From: a virus
Reading direction: 5' to 3' (one strand)
Length of the DNA stretch: 64,000 nt
Virus record (IMG/VR): IMGVR_UViG_3300005329_000012
Location: 25,544 to 89,543 of that record
A program made the translations under genes and the position numbers. Below, one piece after another: positions 3,077 through 57,550 of the stretch (positions are counted from its first letter, which is position 1; every line of letters begins with the position of its first letter). A model generated the notes under the pieces. The model made no database searches and had not been told where the DNA came from. It saw only the letters and a list, made by a program, of their open reading frames with translations.

Positions 3077-3468
3077 GGGCCGCCGCCGCGGAGAGCCAGC
3101 GCAAGGTCAAGCGGCACGCCGTCCAGGCGGCGAACGCCCGCATGCGCTCGGAGGTCCTGGAGGACGCCCTGCGGTCGCTCCTGAAGAACGACGCGGCCAC
3201 CGCCGACGGCGAGCTGGCGGGCGGCTGGAACCCGTGGGTGCTCGACGCGACCGACGGCTTCGGCGCCACCCTGCGCGTCGAGGACCCGATCGCCATGGAG
3301 GTCCTGAGGACCCCGGCGCTGCTCACGCGCGCGCGGGAGATCATGACGGAGGAGTTCGGCCGCGCGCTGTTCGAGTCCGACGAGACCGCGGGCTTCTACC
3401 AGGCGCTCCTGGAGGACATCGTCGAGCGCCCCGAGGGTGCCATCTACGTAGCGGAGACGGTGCACTAG
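3073..3468 (+). CDS. Hypothetical neck-region protein
   Basis: GTGA overlap with the upstream stop; C-terminal part of track ORF 1438..3468. Confidence 0.6.
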   Translation: MRAAAAESQRKVKRHAVQAANARMRSEVLEDALRSLLKNDAATADGELAGGWNPWVLDATDGFGATLRVEDPIAMEVLRTPALLTRAREIMTEEFGRALFESDETAGFYQALLEDIVERPEGAIYVAETVH

Positions 3469-4253
3469 TGGCGCTCAGGACCACCGACCTCGGCGTAGCG
3501 AGTCACAAGCGGCTCGTCTACCGCAACGTCGTCGCGGCCCTGAAGGCCGCGTTCGACGGCAGCTACGACCGCGAGCGCCAGCTCGCCGGGATCAAGGTCA
3601 CGCAGACGTACCCGAACAAGGAGCTGGACTTCCCGGCGATCGTCGTGGACTACCAGCCGCAGAAGGTCGTCGCCGCGGGCGTCGGCCACCTGGAGATCTT
3701 CCCGGACCCGCAGGGCAACCTCCGCAAGTGGAAGCACAGCCGCTTCGAGGGCTCGCTCGCGCTCCACATCTACGCCCTCTCGACGCTCGACCGCGACATC
3801 ATCGAGGACGCGGTGGCCGAGCTGGTCAGGTTCGGCAGCCTGGACGACCAGCTGAACAGGTTCTACGAGGTCGTCTACCCGTCGGACGAGGAGATGGAGG
3901 CCACGAAGGACGTCGAGGACGCCTACAGCTTCGGCCTGTTCGACCAGCTCATGCTCGACTCCGACCAGCTGTTCGCCGTCGGCAACTCGGCCACGATCGC
4001 GCCGTGGAGCCCGGAGGACGTGCTCGTCTACGCGGGCGGCTGGACCGTCAACCTCCACGGCGGCTACTACAACTGCTTCCCGCGCCACGACTGGTCCCTG
4101 GTGCGCCGCGTGGACATCCAGGCGTTCGAGGGCACGTTCGACTCGCCGCCCGTCGCGACGGCGGCGTTCAGCTGGGACTCGGAGGACGAGGGCGCCGCGA
4201 GCGGCTCGGGCTACGCGTCCTCTGAGGAGTCGTATACCGACGCCAGCCCGTGA
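3468..4253 (+). CDS. Putative tail terminator/completion protein
   Basis: TAG/GTG coupling, immediately upstream of the sheath, YPxxxxxFPAIVV motif. Confidence 0.55.
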   Translation: MALRTTDLGVASHKRLVYRNVVAALKAAFDGSYDRERQLAGIKVTQTYPNKELDFPAIVVDYQPQKVVAAGVGHLEIFPDPQGNLRKWKHSRFEGSLALHIYALSTLDRDIIEDAVAELVRFGSLDDQLNRFYEVVYPSDEEMEATKDVEDAYSFGLFDQLMLDSDQLFAVGNSATIAPWSPEDVLVYAGGWTVNLHGGYYNCFPRHDWSLVRRVDIQAFEGTFDSPPVATAAFSWDSEDEGAASGSGYASSEESYTDASP

Positions 4254-4312: not shown

Positions 4313-6352
4313 TTGGCCCTTCCCTACACAAAGCCCGGAGTCAGCATCAGCGAGGTCGTCTCGCCCCAGCTGGCGCCGGTTCTGCTCGATCCGAACGTCA
4401 TCGCCATCGTCGGTCCCGGGCGGGGCTACGAGGAGCACGTCGAGGTCTTCGTTCTGGACGACAACACGGCGGTCGCGCTCGCGGCCACGGGCGTCGACCC
4501 CTCCACCGTGGTAGTCCGCGACGCCGCGGACGTCACCCTCACCCCCTTCACCCCCTCCGTCTACGGCGTCACGCCCGGCGTGGACGTCCTGGCGGACTAC
4601 GACGTCGACACGACCGCGCTGGCCACGACCGGCCTGGTGAAGGTCGTGCGCTCCATGCAGACGGCGATCGCCAACGGCGAGCGCGTCACGGTCTACTACG
4701 AGACGAGCGGCACGCCGACCCAGGCGGACGGCGAGACCGTCCAGTTCGCCCTCTCGGCCCTCGACTCCTTCACCTTCACCCAGGGCACCGTCTCGGGCAT
4801 CCAGGACGGCACGATCTTCGTCGTCAGCGACGGCCTGCTCGTCAAGGCCACCGACTACAACCTGGACGACCCCGACGACCCGACGACCCTCGTGTGGATC
4901 AACACGTCCGCGCGCTCGAAGAAGTACCAGACCGTCTGGCTCGACTTCTCCGTGACGGGCGGCGCGACCTACACGGACGTCGCCCTCCAGCTCAACAACC
5001 TGACGCCGGTCGCGCTCCCCGCGAGCGTCGTCGGCGCCTCGCTCGTGGTCAAGACCGCGCCCGGCAACGGCGCAGCGGCCCCGGCCTCGAACGCCGTCGC
5101 CTACGACCGCTCGACGACCGAGGAGGACGACTACACGATCACCGGCACGGGCGCCGCGACGGCCATCCGCCGCTCGCAGGGCTCGACCACGATCGGCGGC
5201 CAGAGCGACAGGCTCACGGTGCGCGTCTCCTACCGGGCGACGCCGACCGACTACTTCCTCCCGACGCGCTGCTTCTCGCAGAACGACGTCGAGCAGAAGT
5301 TCGGCCCGGCCTTCGACTCGGCTGGCAACGTCCAGAACCCGCTCGCGCTCGGCACGCTGTTCGCGTTCCAGAACGGCGCGACGCAGATCGTGGCCCAGGC
5401 CCTTTTCTCGGGCACGCTCGACTCCCCGGCCGCGCCCACGGGCGCCGTCGGCGACTGGTCGGTCTCGCTGGAGCGCCTGCGCTCCGTGCAGGACATCAGC
5501 GTGATCGTCCCGATCCTGGCCTCCGGCCTCTCGACCCAGCTGAGCGACTCGCTCGCCCTCTCGGTCTTCCAGGCGGTGCAGTCGCACCTGCGCTACATGG
5601 CGGCCCAGGAGAACCAGTTCATCGTCGCCGTGCTCGGCGAGGACGGCACGGACAGCGTGCTCGCCACCCCGGCCACCCTCCAGGCGCACGCCGAGGGGCT
5701 CGGGCAGGGCTTCAGCTCGGAGGCGGTCTCGCTCGTCTCCCCGAGCGTCTACACCTACGCGAACCCGGTCACGGGCGCGACCAACGACATCGGCGGCCAG
5801 TACGTCGCCGCCGCGATCGCGGGCATGGCGGCCCGGTACCCGGTGCAGATGCCGCTCACGCGCAAGCGCGTCAACGGCGTCACGTCGCTCAAGACGGTCC
5901 GCACCGAGACCCAGAAGGACCAGGACGCCCAGAGCGGCCTCATGGTCGTGGAGAACAAGCGCGGGCGCATCCAGGTCCGCCACTCCATCACCACCAACCA
6001 GGACACGCGCGCGCAGCAGGAGTTCTCGGTCGTCCGGGCCAAGTACTGGATGATGAAGAACCTCGTCGAGGCGCTCGACACGCAGGCCGTCGGCCAGCTG
6101 ATCCTCGACGCGGAGAGCAACTTCCTCGTCCAGGTGCTCGTCTCGGCCGAGCTGGAGCTGCTCATCCAGCAGGGCGCGATCGTCTCCTACGACGGCGTGT
6201 CGGTCAGGCAGGACCCGTCCGACGCGACGGCCCTCCAGGTGCGGTTCTCGTACCTCCCGGCCTACCCGCTCAACCACATCAACATCAGCTTCTCGATCAG
6301 CGCCGCGCAGGGCGTCGAGTTCGAGCAGTCCACCGCGACGCAGGGCTTCTAA
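4313..6352 (+). CDS. Contractile tail sheath protein
   Basis: N-terminal YTKPGVSISEV; C-terminal RIQVRHSITT...EFSVVRA...VRFSYLPAYPLNHINISFS typical of sheaths; TTG start with AAGGAG SD. Confidence 0.9.
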   Translation: MALPYTKPGVSISEVVSPQLAPVLLDPNVIAIVGPGRGYEEHVEVFVLDDNTAVALAATGVDPSTVVVRDAADVTLTPFTPSVYGVTPGVDVLADYDVDTTALATTGLVKVVRSMQTAIANGERVTVYYETSGTPTQADGETVQFALSALDSFTFTQGTVSGIQDGTIFVVSDGLLVKATDYNLDDPDDPTTLVWINTSARSKKYQTVWLDFSVTGGATYTDVALQLNNLTPVALPASVVGASLVVKTAPGNGAAAPASNAVAYDRSTTEEDDYTITGTGAATAIRRSQGSTTIGGQSDRLTVRVSYRATPTDYFLPTRCFSQNDVEQKFGPAFDSAGNVQNPLALGTLFAFQNGATQIVAQALFSGTLDSPAAPTGAVGDWSVSLERLRSVQDISVIVPILASGLSTQLSDSLALSVFQAVQSHLRYMAAQENQFIVAVLGEDGTDSVLATPATLQAHAEGLGQGFSSEAVSLVSPSVYTYANPVTGATNDIGGQYVAAAIAGMAARYPVQMPLTRKRVNGVTSLKTVRTETQKDQDAQSGLMVVENKRGRIQVRHSITTNQDTRAQQEFSVVRAKYWMMKNLVEALDTQAVGQLILDAESNFLVQVLVSAELELLIQQGAIVSYDGVSVRQDPSDATALQVRFSYLPAYPLNHINISFSISAAQGVEFEQSTATQGF

Positions 6353-6363
6353 GGGGCTAACGA

Positions 6364-49885: not shown

Positions 49886-49959
49886 CGCGGGGTAGAGCAG
49901 TTTGGTAGCTCGCCAGGCTCATAACCTGGAGGTCGTGGGTTCAAATCCCACTCCCGCTA
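49886..49959 (+). tRNA. tRNA-fMet(CAT)
   Basis: Cloverleaf, C1:U72 mismatch, loop CTCATAA. Confidence 0.92.
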
Positions 49960-50154
49960 CTTGAGGTACAAGTTCGAGCCCGCCACGGCGGGCAGCCCCG
50001 CAAGGGGCGATTGAGCCCGGGCCGAGCCCTCCCGGGACCTAAAAAGGGGCTTCTGGCTTCGCTGTTACCAGGAACCGAACAGCGTGGTGGAGGCTGGCGT
50101 ACCGCGTCAGGCCCTCGCACGGGGAGGCACGGCGTCAACTGGTGCCTCAGAATA

Positions 50155-50229
50155 CAGGGTGTAGCTCAGTCTGGTGAGAGTACTCCGTTGGGGACGGAGA
50201 GGTCGTGGGTTCAAGTCCCACCACCCTGA
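50155..50229 (+). tRNA. tRNA-Pro(GGG)
   Basis: Cloverleaf, loop TTGGGGA. Confidence 0.92.
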
Positions 50230-50279
50230 TGGCGACCGCGGCCGGTAACGGCGGGGACGGCTCGGAGAGACGAGCGCAT

Positions 50280-50353
50280 CAGCGTGTAGCTCAGTCTGGC
50301 AGAGTCGCCGCTTCGGGAGCGGATGGTCGCAGGTTCGAATCCTGCCACGCTGA
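50280..50353 (+). tRNA. tRNA-Pro(CGG)
   Basis: Cloverleaf, loop TTCGGGA. Confidence 0.9.
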
Positions 50354-50412
50354 CTGGCCCCTTCGGGGGCCGTGTCCGACCGGGCGCGGGAACACCTTCC
50401 CCGGTCGGCCCT

Positions 50413-50786
50413 GGGCCAGCCATGGCTTTCGACAGTCGAGCATGGACGGCGAGATCGCAGCGGGTCGCGGCCTACCGCGCCTAGCCCCGGATCGGGCAAA
50501 CCCAAATGCGAACGACAACGATCGCATCGAGGTCGCGGACACGTTCCCGGCAGAGTGGCTCGCCGCTCCCGCCGAGTCGGCCCTCGTCGCTGCCTGACGA
50601 GCACCAACAGGTAGACCGCACCCGCCGGTAGCGGGTGACGCCCCGGAGAGACGGGTCGCCGCAGGGGTGAACGGCGCTAAACCGATGGACCCCCGAGCCC
50701 GGGGTACGCTGGCCGGGCACACAAGCTGCTAGAAGGTCTTGACGGAACCACCCGGCTGGACGCGGGTTCGACTCCCGCCTGGTCCA
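50413..50786 (+). ncRNA. ssrA: tmRNA; tag reading frame 50508-50597
   Basis: Acceptor GGGCCAG/CTGGTCC-A with G3:U70, GGCTTTCGAC 5' motif, T-arm GCGGG-TTCGACT-CCCGC, tag ANDN...ALVAA-TGA. Confidence 0.93.
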
Positions 50787-50927
50787 CTCCACTGCACCAA
50801 GCGTTGCCCCGACGGCGACGGGTCCCGGCTCTGCGGAGCACACTGCAACCGGGCCGCGGACGTGCTCACCGCGCGGTCGCTGATGAACGACGGAGGCCCG
50901 ACCAGTTCGGGGCTGAGGTCTCCACCT

Positions 50928-51001
50928 ATGCCGCTAGCTCAATCAGGCAGAGCAGGTGTCTCCAAAGCACAAGGTTCCGGGTTCGATTCCTGGGCGGCAT
51001 G
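50928..51001 (+). tRNA. tRNA-Trp(CCA)
   Basis: Cloverleaf, loop CTCCAAA. Confidence 0.88.
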
Positions 51002-51015
51002 CCTCGCACCACCCT

Positions 51016-51088
51016 GTCCGGTTCGTCTAGTGGACCAGGATGCCGCCCTCTCACGGCGGAGACACGGGATCGTAGCCCGTACTGGACA
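51016..51088 (+). tRNA. tRNA-Glu(CTC)
   Basis: Cloverleaf, loop CTCTCAC; atypical T-loop ATCGTAG. Confidence 0.85.
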
Positions 51089-51125
51089 TAGGGCACGCTC
51101 GGCCGCGAGGCCGCCGTGCCCGCAT

Positions 51126-51198
51126 TGGCGGGTAGCTCAGTCGGTAGAGCGGCTCCCTGTTAAGGAGAAGGTCGTGGGATCGAAGCCCACCCTGCCAG
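51126..51198 (+). tRNA. tRNA-Asn(GTT)
   Basis: Cloverleaf, loop CTGTTAA. Confidence 0.9.
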
Positions 51199-51246
51199 CT
51201 CACAGCGCCCTAGCAGGGGGCGCGGACACAAGTACCCTGCGCGCGT

Positions 51247-51319
51247 AGCCCGTTCGACTAGCGGACAGGTCGCCGCTCTTTCAAGGCGGTAGGCGCGGGT
51301 TCGAATCCCGCACGGGCCA
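51247..51319 (+). tRNA. tRNA-Glu(TTC)
   Basis: Cloverleaf, loop CTTTCAA; 1:72 mismatch. Confidence 0.85.
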
Positions 51320-51352
51320 TTGCCAGGCAGCACAGCAAGACCGCAGCGCCAC

Positions 51353-51423
51353 TGGGAGGTCGTCTAATGGTAGGACGCCGGGTTCTGGCCCCGGAAACTG
51401 AGGTTCGACCCCTTGCCACCCAG
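51353..51423 (+). tRNA. tRNA-Gln(CTG)
   Basis: Cloverleaf, loop TTCTGGC. Confidence 0.85.
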
Positions 51424-51435
51424 CTCGCAACACCC

Positions 51436-51508
51436 GCCTCGCTAGCTCAGTCGGTAGAGCAGGGGACTTTTAATCCCAAGGTCCTAGGTTCGAACCCTAG
51501 GCGGGGCA
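51436..51508 (+). tRNA. tRNA-Lys(TTT)
   Basis: Cloverleaf, loop CTTTTAA. Confidence 0.92.
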
Positions 51509-51660
51509 CTGCAACAACTTCTCGACGTGGCGTCCCGCGAGGGGCGCTGGCGAAGCCGTCCGACGCATCCCTGGATCGCGACCAGGCTCTCAGTGGCGGG
51601 GGAACGCGGGTTCGATTCCCGCAACGCTCCTAACCGGGCGGGCCTGGCACGTCGGGGCGC

Positions 51661-51733
51661 GGACCGCTAGCTCAGTCGGCAGAGCAGGGGCCTCTTAAGC
51701 CCAAGGTCCAGGGTTCGATCCCCTGGCGGTCCA
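51661..51733 (+). tRNA. tRNA-Lys(CTT)
   Basis: Cloverleaf, loop CTCTTAA. Confidence 0.92.
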
Positions 51734-51821
51734 CTCAGGGAGGCGCGACGGAGTTCGGCCTGACGGCCGCCGTTGGGAAGCCCCGGCCCCGGTGCCGGGT
51801 GGCCTACCCCTCCCTGTACAC

Positions 51822-51903
51822 GCTCCTGTGGCGGAACAGGTAGACGCGCTGGTTTCAGGAACCAGTGTCTTCGGACGTGGGGGTTCGGATCCCTCCGGGA
51901 GCA
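51822..51903 (+). tRNA. tRNA-Leu(CAG)
   Basis: Type II cloverleaf, loop TTCAGGA. Confidence 0.9.
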
Positions 51904-51974
51904 CTTGACAACCCCGGCTTCGGCCGGAGACGCGCGGGGCGGCGTGGGCCTTCGGGCCGGGACAGCCCCAACAT

Positions 51975-52058
51975 GCGCTCGTGGTGGAATCGGTAGACAC
52001 GTCGGCTTGAGGAGCCGGTGGCCGCGAGGTCGTGGGGGTTCAACTCCCTCCGGGCGCA
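51975..52058 (+). tRNA. tRNA-Leu(GAG)
   Basis: Type II cloverleaf, loop TTGAGGA. Confidence 0.9.
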
Positions 52059-52157
52059 CTAGGCTGGCCGTCAGACGGTGAGAACGCGGCCCGCTCAGGG
52101 AAGGCACCTACCCGGGCCGACTGCTCACCTCTTTGCCCGGACGTAGCCTTCCCGCAC

Positions 52158-52230
52158 GGCGACGTAACTCAGTCGGTAGAGTGTCTGTCTGAAAAGCAGA
52201 AGGTCGGCGGTTCAAGTCCGCCCGTCGCCA
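52158..52230 (+). tRNA. tRNA-Phe(GAA)
   Basis: Cloverleaf, loop CTGAAAA. Confidence 0.92.
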
Positions 52231-52372
52231 TCGAGAGAGGGAAACATCCCGGAAGCGGTAGTGTGTTGAGGCCGGGGCCGAACCGCCTGACGCTGGCGGG
52301 GGAATGGGAGCACCCGGGCGCACCCGGAGTCCCGGTTCGAGTCCGGGCCGCGAGACCCTCCCTCGGAACCGC

Positions 52373-52454
52373 GCCCGCCTGGCGGAACAGGTAGACGCCC
52401 CGGCTTCAAACACCGGCGCCACCAGGCGTTCGGGTTCGAGTCCCGAGGCGGGCA
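52373..52454 (+). tRNA. tRNA-Leu(CAA)
   Basis: Type II cloverleaf, loop TTCAAAC. Confidence 0.88.
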
Positions 52455-52469
52455 TAGCAAGACCAGCAT

Positions 52470-52542
52470 GGAGGACGTAGCTCAGTGGTAGAGTCGCGGG
52501 TTGTGGTCCCGTCGGTCGTGGGTTCGATCCCCACCGTCCTCC
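52470..52542 (+). tRNA. tRNA-His(GTG)
   Basis: G-1:C73, loop TTGTGGT. Confidence 0.9.
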
Positions 52543-52640
52543 CTCCCTGTGGCCCCGCATTGCCAAAGCAGAGGAACCACCGGCCCGTTACGCGGGGAAG
52601 CACCGGGCGCCGTCGGCCTGTGAACAGAACGGACGGACAC

Positions 52641-52714
52641 GTGGGAGTAGCTCAGTTCGGTAGAGTGTCGGCTTGCCAAGTCGAAGGTCGCGGGTTCGAT
52701 CCCCGTCTCCCACA
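52641..52714 (+). tRNA. tRNA-Gly(GCC)
   Basis: Cloverleaf, loop TTGCCAA. Confidence 0.9.
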
Positions 52715-52755
52715 CTGCCGCCCAGGCCCGGAAGGGAGCAAGCGGCCACAGCAGT
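52715..52755 (+). ncRNA. SRP RNA helix-8 (Ffh-binding) hairpin
   Basis: CCGCC-CAGG-CCC-GGAA-GGG-AGCA-AGCGG: conserved symmetric loop and GGAA tetraloop of SRP helix 8. Confidence 0.7.
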
Positions 52756-52847
52756 CCGCCGGGGGCACGCCGAGGCGCATGCGCCGAAGCAGCCCTAAGA
52801 CAGAGCCGCGTTCCGGTCGCGGCCTAATCCCTAAGCGGGCTGCACAC

Positions 52848-52921
52848 GCCACCGTAGCTCAGTCGGCAAGAGCGCCCGCCTTGTAAGCGGGAGGTCCGGG
52901 GCTCGACCCCCCGCGGTGGCT
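52848..52921 (+). tRNA. tRNA-Thr(TGT)
   Basis: Cloverleaf, loop CTTGTAA. Confidence 0.88.
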
Positions 52922-52930
52922 CTCGTACAC

Positions 52931-53003
52931 GCCCCGCTAGCTCAGCGGAAAGAGCGACGGGTTCCTAACCCGCAGGTCGCAGGTTCGATCCCTGCGCGGG
53001 GCA
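52931..53003 (+). tRNA. tRNA-Arg(CCT)
   Basis: Cloverleaf, loop TTCCTAA. Confidence 0.9.
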
Positions 53004-53138
53004 TCCACCGAGGCTGGGCGCGCGAGGTCCGTCGCCGGACGCGTCCGCTGCCGTAGTACCCTCTGACGACACGGGAGAGCGGCAGGCGCCTTCGGGCGCG
53101 TGAAAGGCTTAGCGGCCCGGTAGCCAACTCGGTGATTT

Positions 53139-53212
53139 GCGCTGGTAGCTCAGTCGGATAGAGCCACGGGCTTCTAACCCGTCGGTCGGGGGTTCGAGTC
53201 CCTCTCGGCGCA
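53139..53212 (+). tRNA. tRNA-Arg(TCT)
   Basis: Cloverleaf, loop CTTCTAA. Confidence 0.9.
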
Positions 53213-53311
53213 TCGTGGGTCCTCCAGGAGGGGTGACAGCGAGGACATCTGGCCGGGCATTCGTGGAGCCGCCCCTGCCCGGGAACAACTGGCGGCCTAG
53301 ACCCTCCACCC

Positions 53312-53385
53312 GCACGCATAGCTCAGTCTGGCAGAGCGACGCGCTTCCAACGCGTAGGTCAGGGGTTCGAGGCCCCTTGCGTGCT
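53312..53385 (+). tRNA. tRNA-Gly(TCC)
   Basis: Cloverleaf, loop CTTCCAA. Confidence 0.9.
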
Positions 53386-53392
53386 TCATCGC

Positions 53393-53466
53393 TGCTCCGT
53401 AGCTCAGTCAGGCAGAGCGTCCGGCTCATAACCGGCAGGTCGAGGGTTCGAGTCCCTCCGGAGCGA
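53393..53466 (+). tRNA. tRNA-Met(CAT), elongator (Ile2 not excluded)
   Basis: Cloverleaf, loop CTCATAA. Confidence 0.85.
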
Positions 53467-53669
53467 CTGGGGACAGCGGGGCGGACCGCCCGCCGGGAAC
53501 ACACTTCGCCGTGCACGGCGCAAGGCACGTCCTGGCAGCAGTGGCCACCGGACGGAATCCGATCGACCGCGCCCTACCTAACTGCTGGCCACCGGCCGAT
53601 GGTCATTCCGCCGTTCGACTCGGCGAGCCGGGGAGGGTGGCTCCCTCCAGCCAGGCCAGCAGGTCTTTC

Positions 53670-53743
53670 GCCCGTGTAGCTCAGTCAGGCAGAGCACTTC
53701 CCTCGTAAGGAAGGGGTCCGGGGTTCAACTCCCCGCGCGGGCT
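53670..53743 (+). tRNA. tRNA-Thr(CGT)
   Basis: Cloverleaf, loop CTCGTAA. Confidence 0.9.
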
Positions 53744-53909
53744 CTTGGGTGCCGGTTCGTCGATCGTGGGCCGGTCCCCAGCAGCTTCATGAAGAACCGC
53801 GCGATGCATCGCGCATAGGAGGGCCGGGGTGCGAATCCCTGTAGAGAAAACGGTTGCCTCCGAACCGGGAGCGGTTGACGGGCCAGATCACCCGCGGCGC
53901 TCCCGACCC

Positions 53910-53984
53910 GCCGACGTAGCTCAGTCAGGCCAGAGCACTTCCTCGGTAAGGAAGGGGTCCAGGGTTCAAGTCCCTGCGTCGGCT
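53910..53984 (+). tRNA. tRNA-Thr(GGT)
   Basis: Cloverleaf, loop TCGGTAA (C33). Confidence 0.88.
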
Positions 53985-53990
53985 TCGCAC

Positions 53991-54063
53991 GGCCCGTTAG
54001 CTCAGTGGACAGAGTGTCCGGCTTCGAACCGGATGGTCGGGGGTTCGACTCCCTCACGGGCCG
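53991..54063 (+). tRNA. tRNA-Arg(TCG)
   Basis: Cloverleaf, loop CTTCGAA. Confidence 0.9.
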
Positions 54064-54170
54064 CTTCCGTGGAACGTCGGGTAGGTCGCCACTGGCGGCC
54101 AGGCCCGGCGCGATCGGTTCACGCGGGAGGCAGCGCGTGAGAGGGGTGGAAGTCCCCACTGCCACAACAC

Positions 54171-54245
54171 GGACCGTTAGCTCAGCATGGTCAGAGTAGC
54201 GCCCTGTCGAGGCGATGGTCACGGGTTCGAATCCCGTACGGTCCG
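54171..54245 (+). tRNA. tRNA-Asp(GTC)
   Basis: Cloverleaf, loop CTGTCGA, G73. Confidence 0.9.
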
Positions 54246-54342
54246 CTCCGTTTCAGAACGCACGAAAACGGGTAGAAACAACCCACGGGGCCGTCTTCGG
54301 GCGCCCCGTCCAAACCAAGCACCAGGGGGCAAGACAGCAACG

Positions 54343-55044
54343 ATGGCAGACCAGAAGTACTACGACTCGACGGACACCGAGCGGACCAACCCGCTCAGCC
54401 GTCAGCAGGCGGCGCAGGTCCAGATGGGCGGACACGCGGTGGTCGACGAAGACGGCCAGCCCGCGACACTCTACGCGTACGACGTGCTCCACGGCCGCGA
54501 GGCCGTGACCGGCGAGGTATCGGCGGACCAGCTCGACCGCGAGGCCCTCAAGGCCAACGGCGGCGAGGCCCGCGACGCCTGGCAGGAGCAGGCCGACGAG
54601 AACGCCGCCGACGGCGGCGACGAGCCCGAGCGGCTCACGATCCCGCAGCTCAAGGAGCAGATCGCGGACCTCAGCGACGAGGACCTCGACAGCTACGCGA
54701 ACGACGACCGCAAGGGCGCCCAGGAGGCCGCGAAGGCCGAGCAGGCGCGCCGCGCGGAGGCCGCCGAGGCCGACGAGAAGAACGAGGACGAGAACAGCAC
54801 GGCCAGCGGCGCCGAGGGCGTCGAGGCCGCCGTCCAGGGCGTCCTGGAGTCGCAGCAGGCCGCCAGCAACCGGCCGCCCGACTCCGACGAGGCGCAGGCG
54901 CTTCTCGCGCAGGCCACCGTCGGCGGCGACAGCGGCGACGCGACCGTGGAGGGCGTCGTCGAGGACGACGGCTCCCCGGGCGACAAGGAGTTCGACCCGG
55001 ACGCCGCGGCGGACGAGAAGGACTCCGAGGACGAGGACAAGTAG
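54343..55044 (+). CDS. Highly acidic hypothetical protein inside the tRNA array
   Basis: ATG 54343 (MADQKYYDST...), D/E-rich, normal codon bias, followed by hairpin 55050-55071. Confidence 0.8.
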   Translation: MADQKYYDSTDTERTNPLSRQQAAQVQMGGHAVVDEDGQPATLYAYDVLHGREAVTGEVSADQLDREALKANGGEARDAWQEQADENAADGGDEPERLTIPQLKEQIADLSDEDLDSYANDDRKGAQEAAKAEQARRAEAAEADEKNEDENSTASGAEGVEAAVQGVLESQQAASNRPPDSDEAQALLAQATVGGDSGDATVEGVVEDDGSPGDKEFDPDAAADEKDSEDEDK

Positions 55045-55075
55045 CACACGAGGCCCCCGCGAGGGGGCCTCACCA

Positions 55076-55148
55076 GGGCGGCTAGCTCAGTAGGGAGAGC
55101 GCCGGTTTCACACGCCGTAGGTCGCAGGTTCGAGCCCTGCGCCGCCCA
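55076..55148 (+). tRNA. tRNA-Val(CAC)
   Basis: Cloverleaf, loop TTCACAC. Confidence 0.9.
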
Positions 55149-55439
55149 TCGACCGTAGGACCGTTGGCCTAAAAGCAGCCACCGGCTAAGGAGTGGCGAG
55201 GCAGGGATCGGGGACCGGAACCAGAAGGGTCGATCCGATCTTCAAAGATTCACCGGGCCTGGTAAGGGAGAAGCCCGGGCATCTGCCGCGAAGGCCCGAC
55301 GCAAGGAGAAGCGTCGGGGAGAAGCCCGGAACGGAAGCGAGCCGCATACCCTGCGCGGCGAGCCGACGAGGACTGACCGTCCTACCGGGATGCCGACTTC
55401 GCACGTGAGCCTTTGGCGTAGCAGCACACCTTCGGTCGA
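55149..55439 (+). ncRNA. Candidate novel ncRNA mimicking the 23S rRNA GTPase-associated centre (H43-H44, uL11 site) with ~220-nt insertion
   Basis: Terminal stem TCGACCGTAGG/CCTTCGGTCGA; GGACCGTTGGCCTAAAAGCAGCCACCGGCTAAGGAGTG ... GCGTAGCAGCACAC aligns with 23S nt ~1055-1104. Confidence 0.7.
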
Positions 55440-55445
55440 ACCCAT

Positions 55446-55680
55446 TCGAAGGGGAAGACACGCGCGGCGCGGTGCTTCGAGACGCGTCGAGGAAAGTCAG
55501 GCCACCTGCCGCCCGGGGACGGGACGGCAAACGCGCGGCGACCGAGCGGGAGGGCTCCGGCCCGTCTCACCGCCAGGACCGGCGGGGTGCAACCCCAAGC
55601 GCGGCGCCCAGACCGGGCGTCCAGGTAGGGGGCACAGATGGATGCGTGTCCTAGACAGAAGCCTGCTTACGAACCTTCGA
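55446..55680 (+). ncRNA. rnpB: Minimal RNase P RNA
   Basis: P1 TCGAAGG/CCTTCGA, P2 GACACGC/GCGTGTC, CR-I GAGGAAAGTCAGG, CR-IV AGATGGATG, CR-V ACAGAAGCCTGCTTA; P4 pairing has a compensatory change. Confidence 0.88.
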
Positions 55681-55729
55681 GACACGGTCCCTAACCGCTT
55701 AGGCTAACAACCGCGGGGCGGGGCCTCCA

Positions 55730-55803
55730 GACCGCGTAGCTCAGTCGGGACGAGCGCCACGTTGACATCGTGGAGGTCGGTGGTTCGAGCCCACCCGTGG
55801 TCA
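55730..55803 (+). tRNA. tRNA-Val(GAC)
   Basis: Cloverleaf, loop TTGACAT. Confidence 0.9.
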
Positions 55804-55809
55804 CTGCAA

Positions 55810-55882
55810 GTCCCAGTAGCTCAGAGGACAGAGTGCAGCCCTGCGAAGGCTGAGGTCGGCGGTTCGATCCCGCCCTGGGACG
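55810..55882 (+). tRNA. tRNA-Arg(GCG)
   Basis: Cloverleaf, loop CTGCGAA. Confidence 0.9.
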
Positions 55883-55897
55883 CTACACTTTGGGGCA

Positions 55898-56100
55898 TGG
55901 CGAAGAAGATCAACGCGAAGAAGGAGAAGGCCCTCCGCAACGAGGCGTACGCGAAGCAGTTCCGCAAGCGGACGCCCGGCCGGAAGGACCGGGACAAGAA
56001 GCGGCTCGGCGGCCCCTGGGGCAACTGGTGCCGCATCAAGGGGCACCCGCAGAACTGCGGTTGCGTGTACGGCGTAGGGACTGGTAGCTCAGCTGGTTAG
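55898..56100 (+). CDS. Small basic protein with C-x4-H-x3-C-x-C tail
   Basis: TACACT -10 just upstream of ATG; MAKKINAKKEKALRNEAYAKQFRKR...; 3' end overlaps tRNA-Ile. Confidence 0.6.
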
Positions 56101-56151
56101 AGTGGCGCTCTGATAAGGCGCAGGTCGGTGGTTCGAGTCCACCCCAGTCCA
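56078..56151 (+). tRNA. tRNA-Ile(GAT)
   Basis: Cloverleaf, loop CTGATAA. Confidence 0.92.
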
Positions 56152-56252
56152 TCGGAAGGTAGCTCAGACCCCATGCGAGCGCAATGGCGTGTCGCGGAGA
56201 GCTGGCCCTAACGGGTCGAGACGGCGCGGTGGGAGGCGCCCCTTCCGTACAG

Positions 56253-56323
56253 GGCGACGTGGCCGAGCGGTTAGGCGGTTGGCTGCAACCCTTCACACAC
56301 AGGTTCGAGTCCTGTCGTCGCCT
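56253..56323 (+). tRNA. tRNA-Cys(GCA)
   Basis: Cloverleaf, loop CTGCAAC, U73; two U-U pairs in anticodon stem. Confidence 0.8.
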
Positions 56324-56434
56324 CTAGGTGGCCCCTACGCGGCCACCAGTGCCCCACTCTGGCCCACCGAGGGCCGGGGCGGGGAGTTCCATTGCTTCGC
56401 GAGGTCGGCGCCAGAGGCGCCCACTCTCGTGCTC

Positions 56435-56507
56435 GGGCCGGTAGCTCAGTCGGGAGAGCGACGCACTCGCACTGCGTAGGTCAAGGGTTCGACTCCCTTC
56501 CGGTCCA
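56435..56507 (+). tRNA. tRNA-Ala(CGC)
   Basis: G3:U70, loop CTCGCAC. Confidence 0.92.
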
Positions 56508-56599
56508 CTGCTCCGTCGGGGTACCCGGGTGGTTCCCGGGACTGTCTGAGGAGCGCCCTCTCGGCAGAGGCCGCGTAACCGCGCGGTGTCGGGAGGCCC

Positions 56600-56672
56600 G
56601 GGGCGTTAGCTCAGCTGGGAGAGCATTTGGCTGGCAGCCAAAAGGTCGAGGGTTCAAGTCCCTCACGCTCCA
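56600..56672 (+). tRNA. tRNA-Ala(GGC)
   Basis: G3:U70, loop CTGGCAG. Confidence 0.92.
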
Positions 56673-56818
56673 TGGGTGATCCGGGTTCGAGTCCCGGGCG
56701 CACCTGCCCCGATAGCAGGCCCCGCGAAGGGCCGCAAGCCATGGCTGGCGGGCAAACGTCGGCCCGGTTCGCGCCGGTCCCGGCGGGGAGCGTTGGTGCA
56801 ACGGCAGCACACCCTCAC
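56673..56818 (+). ncRNA. Circularly permuted tRNA-like RNA (T-arm first, D-arm last, no anticodon loop)
   Basis: T-arm 56681-97, 3' acceptor strand 56698-704, then 5' acceptor strand 56787-93 and D-arm GTGC-AACGGCA-GCAC 56796-810. Confidence 0.6.
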
Positions 56819-56906
56819 GGAAGGGCTAGCCGACAGTCGGCGACGGCACCCGGTTGCTAACCGGACGAGGCGCAAGCCCTTGAGGGATCATCCCCCTCCC
56901 CTTCCG
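56819..56906 (+). tRNA. tRNA-Ser(GCT), atypical
   Basis: Type II cloverleaf, loop TTGCTAA, T-loop ATCATCC. Confidence 0.78.
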
Positions 56907-56957
56907 CTCGTTTCGACCGCCCCTACCCCGGGTACAATCACGGGGGAGGAGGCAAAC

Positions 56958-57128
56958 ATGGGAGTGATCGGAGTCATCCTGCGCGTGGTCGCGTTCGTGC
57001 TGTTCGTCGTGGCGGGGGTCAACGAGACCCTGCTCAACCAGCCGCCCGCCGACCTCGTCGCATTCGGCCTGGCCGCCTGGGTCCTCGCCGTCCTGCTGGA
57101 CGGCGTCGACGTCGGCCGCCTCGGCTGA
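56958..57128 (+). CDS. Small two-TM membrane protein
   Basis: TACAAT -10 at 56933, GGAGGAGG SD, two hydrophobic helices. Confidence 0.75.
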   Translation: MGVIGVILRVVAFVLFVVAGVNETLLNQPPADLVAFGLAAWVLAVLLDGVDVGRLG

Positions 57129-57159
57129 GACACGGACTGGCCGCCCCTAGCGGCCACAC

Positions 57160-57248
57160 GGAAGGGCAAGCCGACGGTTGGCTGACGGCACCGGATTCGA
57201 AACCCGGCGAGGCGAGAGCCCTTGTGAGTTCGATCCTCACTCCTTCCG
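57160..57248 (+). tRNA. tRNA-Ser(CGA)
   Basis: Type II cloverleaf, loop TTCGAAA. Confidence 0.82.
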
Positions 57249-57253
57249 CTCAC

Positions 57254-57342
57254 GGAGAGGCAACCCGACGGCTGGCGACGGGACCCGCTTGGAAAGCGGA
57301 CGAGCCTTTGCGGCCTTGCGGGATCGTTCCCCGCCTTCTCCG
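57254..57342 (+). tRNA. tRNA-Ser(GGA)
   Basis: Type II cloverleaf, loop TTGGAAA. Confidence 0.82.
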
Positions 57343-57356
57343 CTCGCGTAAGGGGT

Positions 57357-57470
57357 GTGAGGATCATCCCGACGCAGAAGGGTCCCGACCGGGACCTGGC
57401 AATCCTCCTCTGGACCACGGTCGCCGTCCTGGCGACGGTGATCTTCGTCGCGTACCACGCATTCCACTGA
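57357..57470 (+). CDS. 37-aa single-TM peptide
   Basis: GTG after CGTAAGGGGT motif; MRIIPTQKGPDRDLAILLWTTVAVLATVIFVAYHAFH; stop abuts tRNA-Tyr. Confidence 0.5.
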   Translation: MRIIPTQKGPDRDLAILLWTTVAVLATVIFVAYHAFH

Positions 57471-57550
57471 GCCGACGCTGGGGCTGGGACCCCGACCTGG
57501 CTGTAAACCAGGCGTCTCGTACTAGGCAGGTTCGATTCCTGACGGCGGCA
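57471..57550 (+). tRNA. tRNA-Tyr(GTA), divergent
   Basis: CCTGG-CTGTAAA-CCAGG anticodon arm, T-arm, acceptor with one mismatch. Confidence 0.75.

Follow-up and report, generated by a model that had tools for sequence, protein, structure and literature searches.

The hairpin examined here belongs to IMG/VR virus record IMGVR_UViG_3300005329_000012, an 89.5-kb sequence whose right-hand 64 kb constitute the window, i.e., the whole stretch of 64,000 nucleotides that was analysed, in whose coordinates the features below are given. The genome is GC-rich, with a GC content at the third codon position of about 0.97, and encodes a tail sheath protein, a baseplate J protein, an SNF2 helicase and a DnaE-type polymerase, the last being only about 30% identical to the DnaE of Streptomyces, Gordonia and Rhodococcus phages. 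The contig is read as a fragment of a deeply diverged GC-rich myovirus, and its host is probably a soil actinobacterium. The record is about 56% complete and absences of genes are to be read with that limit; within it, the domain search found neither an SRP_SPB nor an SRP54 domain, that is, no phage version of Ffh or FtsY, and no Phage_integrase domain of a tyrosine integrase.

A co-oriented array of stable-RNA genes, recognised by ARAGORN and Rfam, extends on the plus strand from 49886 to 57550 and comprises 36 tRNAs, a tmRNA-like gene and a reduced RNase P RNA-like gene. The tmRNA-like gene (50413-50787, plus strand) is an ARAGORN call with an unusually long tag, ANDNDRIEVADTFPAEWLAAPAESALVAA, and the match of the Rfam tmRNA model is restricted to 50732-50779 (24 bits). 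A permuted tmRNA call at 50697-51339 is probably false, as it spans several tRNAs and overlaps the other tmRNA call. The RNase P RNA-like gene (55445-55685, plus strand, 241 nt) is located between two tRNA-Val genes and is matched end to end by RF00010 with 46.4 bits (gathering score 100; E 3e-13). It retains P1-P4 and the CR-I and CR-V sequences (GAGGAAAGUC and ACAGAA..GCUUA), and about 63 nt replace most of the specificity domain. The array contains, besides the hairpin, other cut-down host stable RNAs, one of them tmRNA-like and the other resembling an RNase P RNA with the catalytic domain only. The sole protein gene within the tRNA array (54187-55044, plus strand) encodes a very acidic product with no Pfam or PHROG match; its one homologue (77%) is P0002 (from a JGI contig of 1.2 kb), in which the C-terminal 140 residues are identical and the N-terminus has diverged. 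Two further stretches may represent degenerate or non-canonical tRNA-like RNAs, namely a T-arm-like sequence at 52330-52350 within the 142 nt that separate tRNA-Phe from tRNA-Leu (family D17), and an 88-nt tRNA-like stretch at 57160-57247, which is 74% identical to part of the tRNA-Ser at 56819-56907 and scores 29.6 bits with the tRNA-Sec model, ARAGORN making no call there.

The gene immediately upstream of the hairpin is tRNA-Gly(GCC) (52641..52714, plus strand; ARAGORN, Rfam tRNA 68 bits), with discriminator A52714 and no encoded CCA. The same holds for the other array tRNAs whose 3' ends were compared in the window between 49886 and 56672, where none of 32 has an encoded CCA. In all 32 the position following the discriminator (+1) is a pyrimidine, C or U, and in 19 of them the dinucleotide CU directly follows the discriminator; this pyrimidine/CU feature may be a phage-specific signature of 3'-end processing. 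Behind tRNA-Gly the CU occupies 52715..52716 (plus strand), and the released trailer RNA would begin with it. Downstream of the hairpin, the remaining spacer (52747..52847, plus strand) lies outside the conserved element, has no Rfam match and extends to tRNA-Thr(UGU) (52848..52921, plus strand; ARAGORN, Rfam). The fold of the whole spacer has a z-score of -1.27. A repeated spacer module around the hairpin was not found, the only similarity being that of tRNA to tRNA.

The hairpin itself covers 30 bases (52717..52746, plus strand) and has the layout G-CCGC-C/CAGG/CCC-GGAA-GGG/AGCA/A-GCGG-C. A basal stem of five base pairs is formed by GCCGC (G52717-C52721) and GCGGC (G52742-C52746), and C52722 stands opposite A52741 beneath a symmetric loop composed of CAGG (52723-26) and AGCA (52737-40), an exact match to the SRP consensus. 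The tip consists of CCC (52727-29), the GGAA tetraloop (52730-33) and GGG (52734-36), and aligns to the consensus of the Bacteria_small_SRP model. The universally conserved core thus amounts to 18 nt (52723..52740, plus strand) and, judging by its identity with the SRP consensus, would comprise the site for the M domain of Ffh/SRP54 together with the GGAA tetraloop on which FtsY docks. The first-pass annotation had described these letters and this fold, which hold true on reading the sequence and on aligning 52718-52745 without mismatch to the SRP models. It had also placed the hairpin directly after the tRNA discriminator; the element does adjoin the end of tRNA-Gly, but it starts two bases past A52714, with C52715 and U52716 in between. 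Since CU is the trailer signature of the array itself, the hairpin is as near to tRNA-Gly as this signature permits.

In cmscan, 52718-52745 matches positions 194-221 of Archaea_SRP with 26.6 bits (E 1.6e-4), every position being matching or compatible, and positions 33-60 of the 97 positions of Bacteria_small_SRP (RF00169) with 27.1 bits. The latter match has an E-value of 6.3e-5 in the 89.5-kb record and of 0.025 when the 8.4-kb array is compared with all 4227 families. The check with the bacterial model proposed in the first-pass annotation thus gives a match, with a score below the Rfam gathering threshold of 40 bits; it falls under this cut-off because the element contains no other part of an SRP RNA. 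A search of the window for the degenerate core CAGGNCCGGAAGGNAGCA gives a single occurrence, with 0 mismatches. The zero-order expectation based on composition is 1e-4 exact matches per window, and even when 2 mismatches are allowed the core is found only 0.11 times per window in shuffled sequences. The minimum free energy of the hairpin is -14.1 to -14.9 kcal/mol and the hairpin is retained in folds of the whole precursor; compared with shuffled sequences, the hairpin taken by itself has an ordinary fold energy (z -0.91).

The remainder of the SRP RNA is missing. The asymmetric internal loop, which has a 5' strand resembling UGAAY and lies below a stem of 3-4 bp, is absent from the hairpin, a plain 5-bp stem being found instead. 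Helix 5 with its distal GTPase-activating site is likewise absent from the element, as the model match ends at positions 33 and 60 of 97. The earlier remark that the long distal helix is not apparent is in agreement with these limits and with RNAfold, which retains only the 5-bp basal stem followed by unpaired ends. A split SRP RNA interrupted by tRNA-Gly was considered, as the upstream sequence CUGUGAAC is similar to the 5' side of the asymmetric loop, and was rejected: when the spacers on either side of the tRNA are joined, the gain is -5.3 kcal/mol, compared with -4.0 +/- 2.8 kcal/mol in shuffles, 31% of which do equally well, and the closest counterpart in another phage, G001 (described below), has no such upstream spacer. 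The element is an apex-only derivative of SRP RNA, and it stands outside RF00169 by that family's own criteria.

The comparison with cellular SRP RNAs covered 185,579 species genomes, with one genome per species. The 28-mer of the hairpin is absent from all of them, so that it is not a fresh copy of a host gene. A 22-mer of the apex occurs in 74 genomes, mostly of Bacteroidota, Chlorobiota and Archaeoglobi, and the cellular RNAs that contain it all carry the asymmetric loop UGAAY / GGUA(G/A)G, AAGCG being present in none. As the apex is always accompanied by the asymmetric-loop sequence in cells, the phage element has been remodelled into a plain stem. The replacement of the asymmetric loop by a plain stem is found independently in several phage versions (see below). 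High-GC contigs carrying full SRP RNAs (L021, L033 and L037) have other closing pairs and CCC/GGG stems.

The exact 18-mer core was found at 13 loci of IMG/VR and the degenerate core at 43 loci. These loci fall into three groups, which are full-length SRP RNAs of the cellular type, chance matches in coding regions, and short hairpins in phage tRNA arrays; the coding-region matches have no flanking complementarity and no such stems. At least eight other large uncultured phages have apex-only SRP hairpins in their tRNA arrays, on contigs of 46 to 497 kb and often at 17-60 nt from a co-oriented tRNA. The array loci are L006, L007/L014, L005, L009, L013, G001/L048, G002/L047, G003/L046, G004/L049 and L016. 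In L006 (46 kb) the hairpin is located between tRNA-Glu and tRNA-Arg, and L007/L014 (101 and 175 kb) carry a 44-nt element (40.7 bits) downstream of a TTGACA-type promoter. The SRP RNA is nearly full-length in L005 (194 kb; 42.1 bits), in L016 and in L009 (84 kb), where a stem followed by a U-run resembles a terminator. The tRNA arrays of L013 (94 kb), G001 (82 kb), G002 (436 kb), G003 (183 kb) and G004 (417 kb) also hold such hairpins. According to folding, the basal stems of G002, G003 and G004 measure 9-16 bp without an asymmetric loop, and a small asymmetric loop is present in those of L006 and L013. These elements share with the window copy the core, the setting among co-oriented tRNAs, the short stems and the covarying basal pairs. 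The window copy differs in its basal stem of 5 bp, the shortest among the phage elements seen, the others having either 9-16 bp or an asymmetric loop in the stem, and in directly following a tRNA instead of preceding one or being equipped with its own promoter or terminator (as in L007 and L009).

The nearest counterpart is that of G001 (CUGCGUC-core-AGCGCGAGCAG), which is separated by 17 nt from the preceding tRNA-Gly(CCC) and by 24 nt from the following tRNA-Ser(GCU). It belongs to the same subtype as the window copy, with C opposite A and the same AGCAAGCG, and its stem differs by one pair that is altered on both sides, from C-G to G-C, i.e., by a compensatory change. No counterpart of the downstream extension (52747..52847) of the window copy is present in G001, and no match to the DnaE, helicase or terminase-like protein of the window was found there, both records being fragments.

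For the analysis of covariation, 12 phage elements found with the core as the search key were aligned over the core together with the adjoining six bases at either end. The three pairs below the symmetric loop are paired in 100% of the elements, with three to five pair types each, and the pair that closes the tetraloop stem also covaries. The covariation score is 0.659, against 0.177 in shuffles, none of 500 of which reaches it, and at most 0.131 when the partners are slid; this covariation may in part be inherited from different cellular SRP RNA ancestors. Taken with the covariance-model matches and the recurrence in phage tRNA arrays, the covariation of the stem supports the first-pass annotation in taking the hairpin for an isolated SRP helix-8 apex.

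Several other observations concern these contigs. A mini-SRP hairpin lies 17-20 nt upstream of tRNA-Arg(CCG) in two unrelated phages (L006:642-764 and L047:1504-1629), and a linkage between such hairpins and tRNA-Arg may be recurrent, a weak joint with a tRNA-Arg(CCU)-like gene having also been seen in a soil run (see below). Sub-threshold matches to YrlA, a Y RNA-like family, are located between the tRNAs of L013 at 1927-2482, 3860-4007 and 6208-6357 (minus strand), with 24-35 bits. The small viral contig L004 carries (389-550, 3109-3193) a P1-type C4 antisense RNA and a near-complete 4.5S-like RNA (37.6 bits), and L002 and L011 are one 18-kb viral contig with two SRP RNA copies of 77.8 and 33.6 bits; the SRP RNAs of L004 and L002/L011 may be duplications of integration sites or carry-over from the host. 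BLAST of the 41-nt region gave a match to the Xanthomonas phage Xp12 group in an unannotated spacer, which was discarded as an SRP element since cmscan shows no SRP there. The element of L005 used as a query matched only records of 'Acinetobacter phage MD-2021a' (105-207 kb).

The phage itself was met again in three other metagenomes, in near-identical copies with 0-1 differences, which are the only near relatives found. Contigs of 151 nt from a wastewater run of 2025 and a soil run of 2019 span the hairpin without a difference, and a 230-nt contig from a soil run of 2018 (52637-52750) retains tRNA-Gly and the hairpin with one difference. In this last strain the 91-nt spacer between tRNA-His and tRNA-Gly (52545-52637) is skipped or replaced and a different upstream spacer is joined. 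The 2018 run also contains a weak joint, with 20 letters on one side, that sets the SRP core beside a tRNA-Arg(CCU)-like gene and hints at a rearranged relative. No relatives were retrieved by megablast against 50,697 phage records, nor in viral contigs by using the helicase or the pattern of the tRNA-Gly 3' half as an anchor, and no diverged relatives were retrieved in metagenomes by alignment of the in-array ORF or with CAGGCCCGGAAGGGAGCAAGCG.

From these data, the hairpin probably represents a genuine phage RNA with the host's SRP proteins as its partners, an interpretation drawn from sequence comparison. It would be transcribed as part of the phage tRNA operon and then be freed by the maturation of the neighbouring tRNAs. 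Precursors of tRNAs lacking an encoded CCA mature by cleavage or trimming at the discriminator; given that no CCA is encoded and that a pyrimidine occupies +1 throughout, tRNA maturation is expected to leave a trailer starting at C52715 as a by-product. Its 5' end would therefore be set by 3'-end processing of tRNA-Gly after A52714, and its 3' end by RNase P cleavage at tRNA-Thr (52848), as the outer limit, followed by trimming.

The symmetric loop and the GGAA tetraloop displayed by the released RNA would allow binding to the M domain of the host Ffh and, possibly, docking of FtsY. In Escherichia coli, Ffh binds through both the symmetric and the asymmetric loop, the latter contributing to high affinity (PMC5115805). 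Through the tetraloop, FtsY is tethered in the early complex and assembly becomes about 100-fold faster (PMC4091067, PMC5454536), and the distal site activates GTP hydrolysis by the Ffh-FtsY pair (PMC5454536, PMC4091067). Without the asymmetric loop and the distal site of helix 5, the phage RNA would not support a complete targeting cycle, so that a diversion of the host SRP is likelier than a replacement of its RNA. We hold with moderate confidence that the hairpin released by tRNA processing binds the host Ffh and presents a tetraloop for FtsY docking, thereby diverting or reprogramming the SRP cycle of the host; during infection it would titrate or reprogram SRP components, rather than replace the full 4.5S RNA.

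That a bare apex could act in this way is suggested by analogy with a GGAA-tetraloop hairpin mimic, which binds FtsY-NG, competes with 4.5S RNA and prevents the formation of the SRP-FtsY complex in vitro (PMC11404819), and which may be taken as a proof of principle for a decoy. Some features argue in the opposite direction: the asymmetric loop for high-affinity Ffh binding is missing and the basal stem has only 5 bp, the companions in the operon (tRNAs, tmRNA-like and RNase P-like genes) have the appearance of helpers and hence favour a helper over a decoy, and the nearly full-length SRP RNAs of L005, L009 and L016 would be superfluous under a pure decoy model. For binding to Ffh, hairpins of domain IV with a length of about 45-50 nt are equivalent to the full-length 4.5S RNA. 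More tentatively, the capture of Ffh and FtsY by copies of the SRP tip encoded in tRNA operons could be a property of large phages of many lineages, which in the present phage would form part of a miniaturised stable-RNA kit released by tRNA processing.

The helper-type stable RNAs of the same operon lend themselves to the chief alternative explanation, in which the hairpin is a streamlined but functional substitute for the SRP RNA that forms an active minimal SRP with the host Ffh when host RNA synthesis is shut down, and sustains the targeting of membrane proteins, for example those of the phage, much as the neighbouring tRNA, tmRNA-like and RNase P-like genes would act. The nearly complete SRP RNAs of L005 (42.1 bits), L009 and L016, found in the same setting, suggest a graded series from complete to minimal, and the tetraloop alone gives a large acceleration of SRP-FtsY assembly (PMC4091067). 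Nevertheless, we consider this somewhat unlikely, given the loss of the distal GTPase-activation site and of the flexible helix 5 (PMC5454536) as well as of the asymmetric loop (PMC5115805). There is in addition the matter of the host supply: 4.5S RNA is a stable RNA, so that a phage replacement may not be needed. The same losses, which leave only 28-30 nt, could also be those of a non-functional relic, i.e., part of a cellular ffs gene that was acquired along with tRNA genes and is now recognisable only at its apex. This origin is unlikely, because neutral decay should affect the core and its flanks alike, whereas the portion left here coincides exactly with the functional core, which shows 0 mismatches, and its stem is intact; moreover, the stem is unlike that of any cellular SRP RNA in the 185,579 species genomes, and clean stubs with compensatory changes recur in many phages.

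The position next to a tRNA 3' end, in a kind of array in which many spacers are structured, and a folding energy that is not exceptional would fit a GNRA-capped hairpin serving only the processing or the stability of the tRNA precursor, as a block to exonucleases or a processing spacer, with a coincidental or convergent likeness to SRP RNA. This is very unlikely: about 1e-4 occurrences per window are expected of an exact 18/18 SRP core combined with a compatible stem, other phage arrays contain this core as well, and selection for stability alone would not favour a four-by-four symmetric loop, which has a high thermodynamic cost. Integration of a phage into ffs is on record (PMC12540744), and the hairpin could in principle be the remnant of an attP site for such an event. 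Sites of this kind copy the 3' part of the target gene, however, and only the apex is present here; the 89.5-kb record, about 56% complete, has no tyrosine integrase, the 28-mer occurs in none of the cellular genomes, and the element sits inside the tRNA operon of a myovirus with DnaE, all of which makes an attP origin extremely improbable.

The SRP, through which all cells deliver membrane proteins, is essential and universal, and an RNA mimic of it from a bacterial virus was not found in the literature: the search across about 8.4 million full texts returned the integration of a phage into ffs (PMC12540744) and no phage-encoded SRP RNA or mimic. If the hairpins bind Ffh or FtsY, they would represent a previously unrecognised handle of phages on the membrane-protein biogenesis of their hosts, with a bearing on lysis timing, superinfection exclusion and host shut-off, as well as natural minimal ligands that define what Ffh and FtsY need from RNA. 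Were the capture through SRP tips to extend across many phage lineages, it would amount to a direct phage control of co-translational membrane-protein targeting. The arrangement as a tRNA trailer, with the processing outlined above, would furthermore offer an example from a bacterial virus of a small RNA that arises as a by-product of tRNA maturation.

Among known systems, the closest is domain IV, or helix 8, of the 4.5S RNA (ffs; RF00169), with which the phage hairpin shares an identical CAGG/AGCA loop, 3-bp closing stem and GGAA tetraloop. The position beneath the loop, where C is opposite A (or U faces G), is also present in the phage hairpin as in cellular SRP RNAs. From the 4.5S RNA it differs in keeping only about 30 of about 100 nt, without the asymmetric loop, helix 5 and the distal GTPase-activating site, and in being encoded within a tRNA operon, adjoining a tRNA 3' end. 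As small non-tRNA RNAs within a phage tRNA cluster, the species 1 and 2 RNAs of T4 (rnaC/rnaD) are comparable as well, and they are released by tRNA-processing enzymes. They have neither a known likeness to SRP RNA nor a known function; the likeness of the window hairpin, on the other hand, points to a specific protein partner in the host. Finally, the synthetic GGAA hairpin mimics are artificial peptide nucleic acids devoid of the symmetric loop that binds Ffh (PMC11404819), whereas the phage hairpin keeps both sites.
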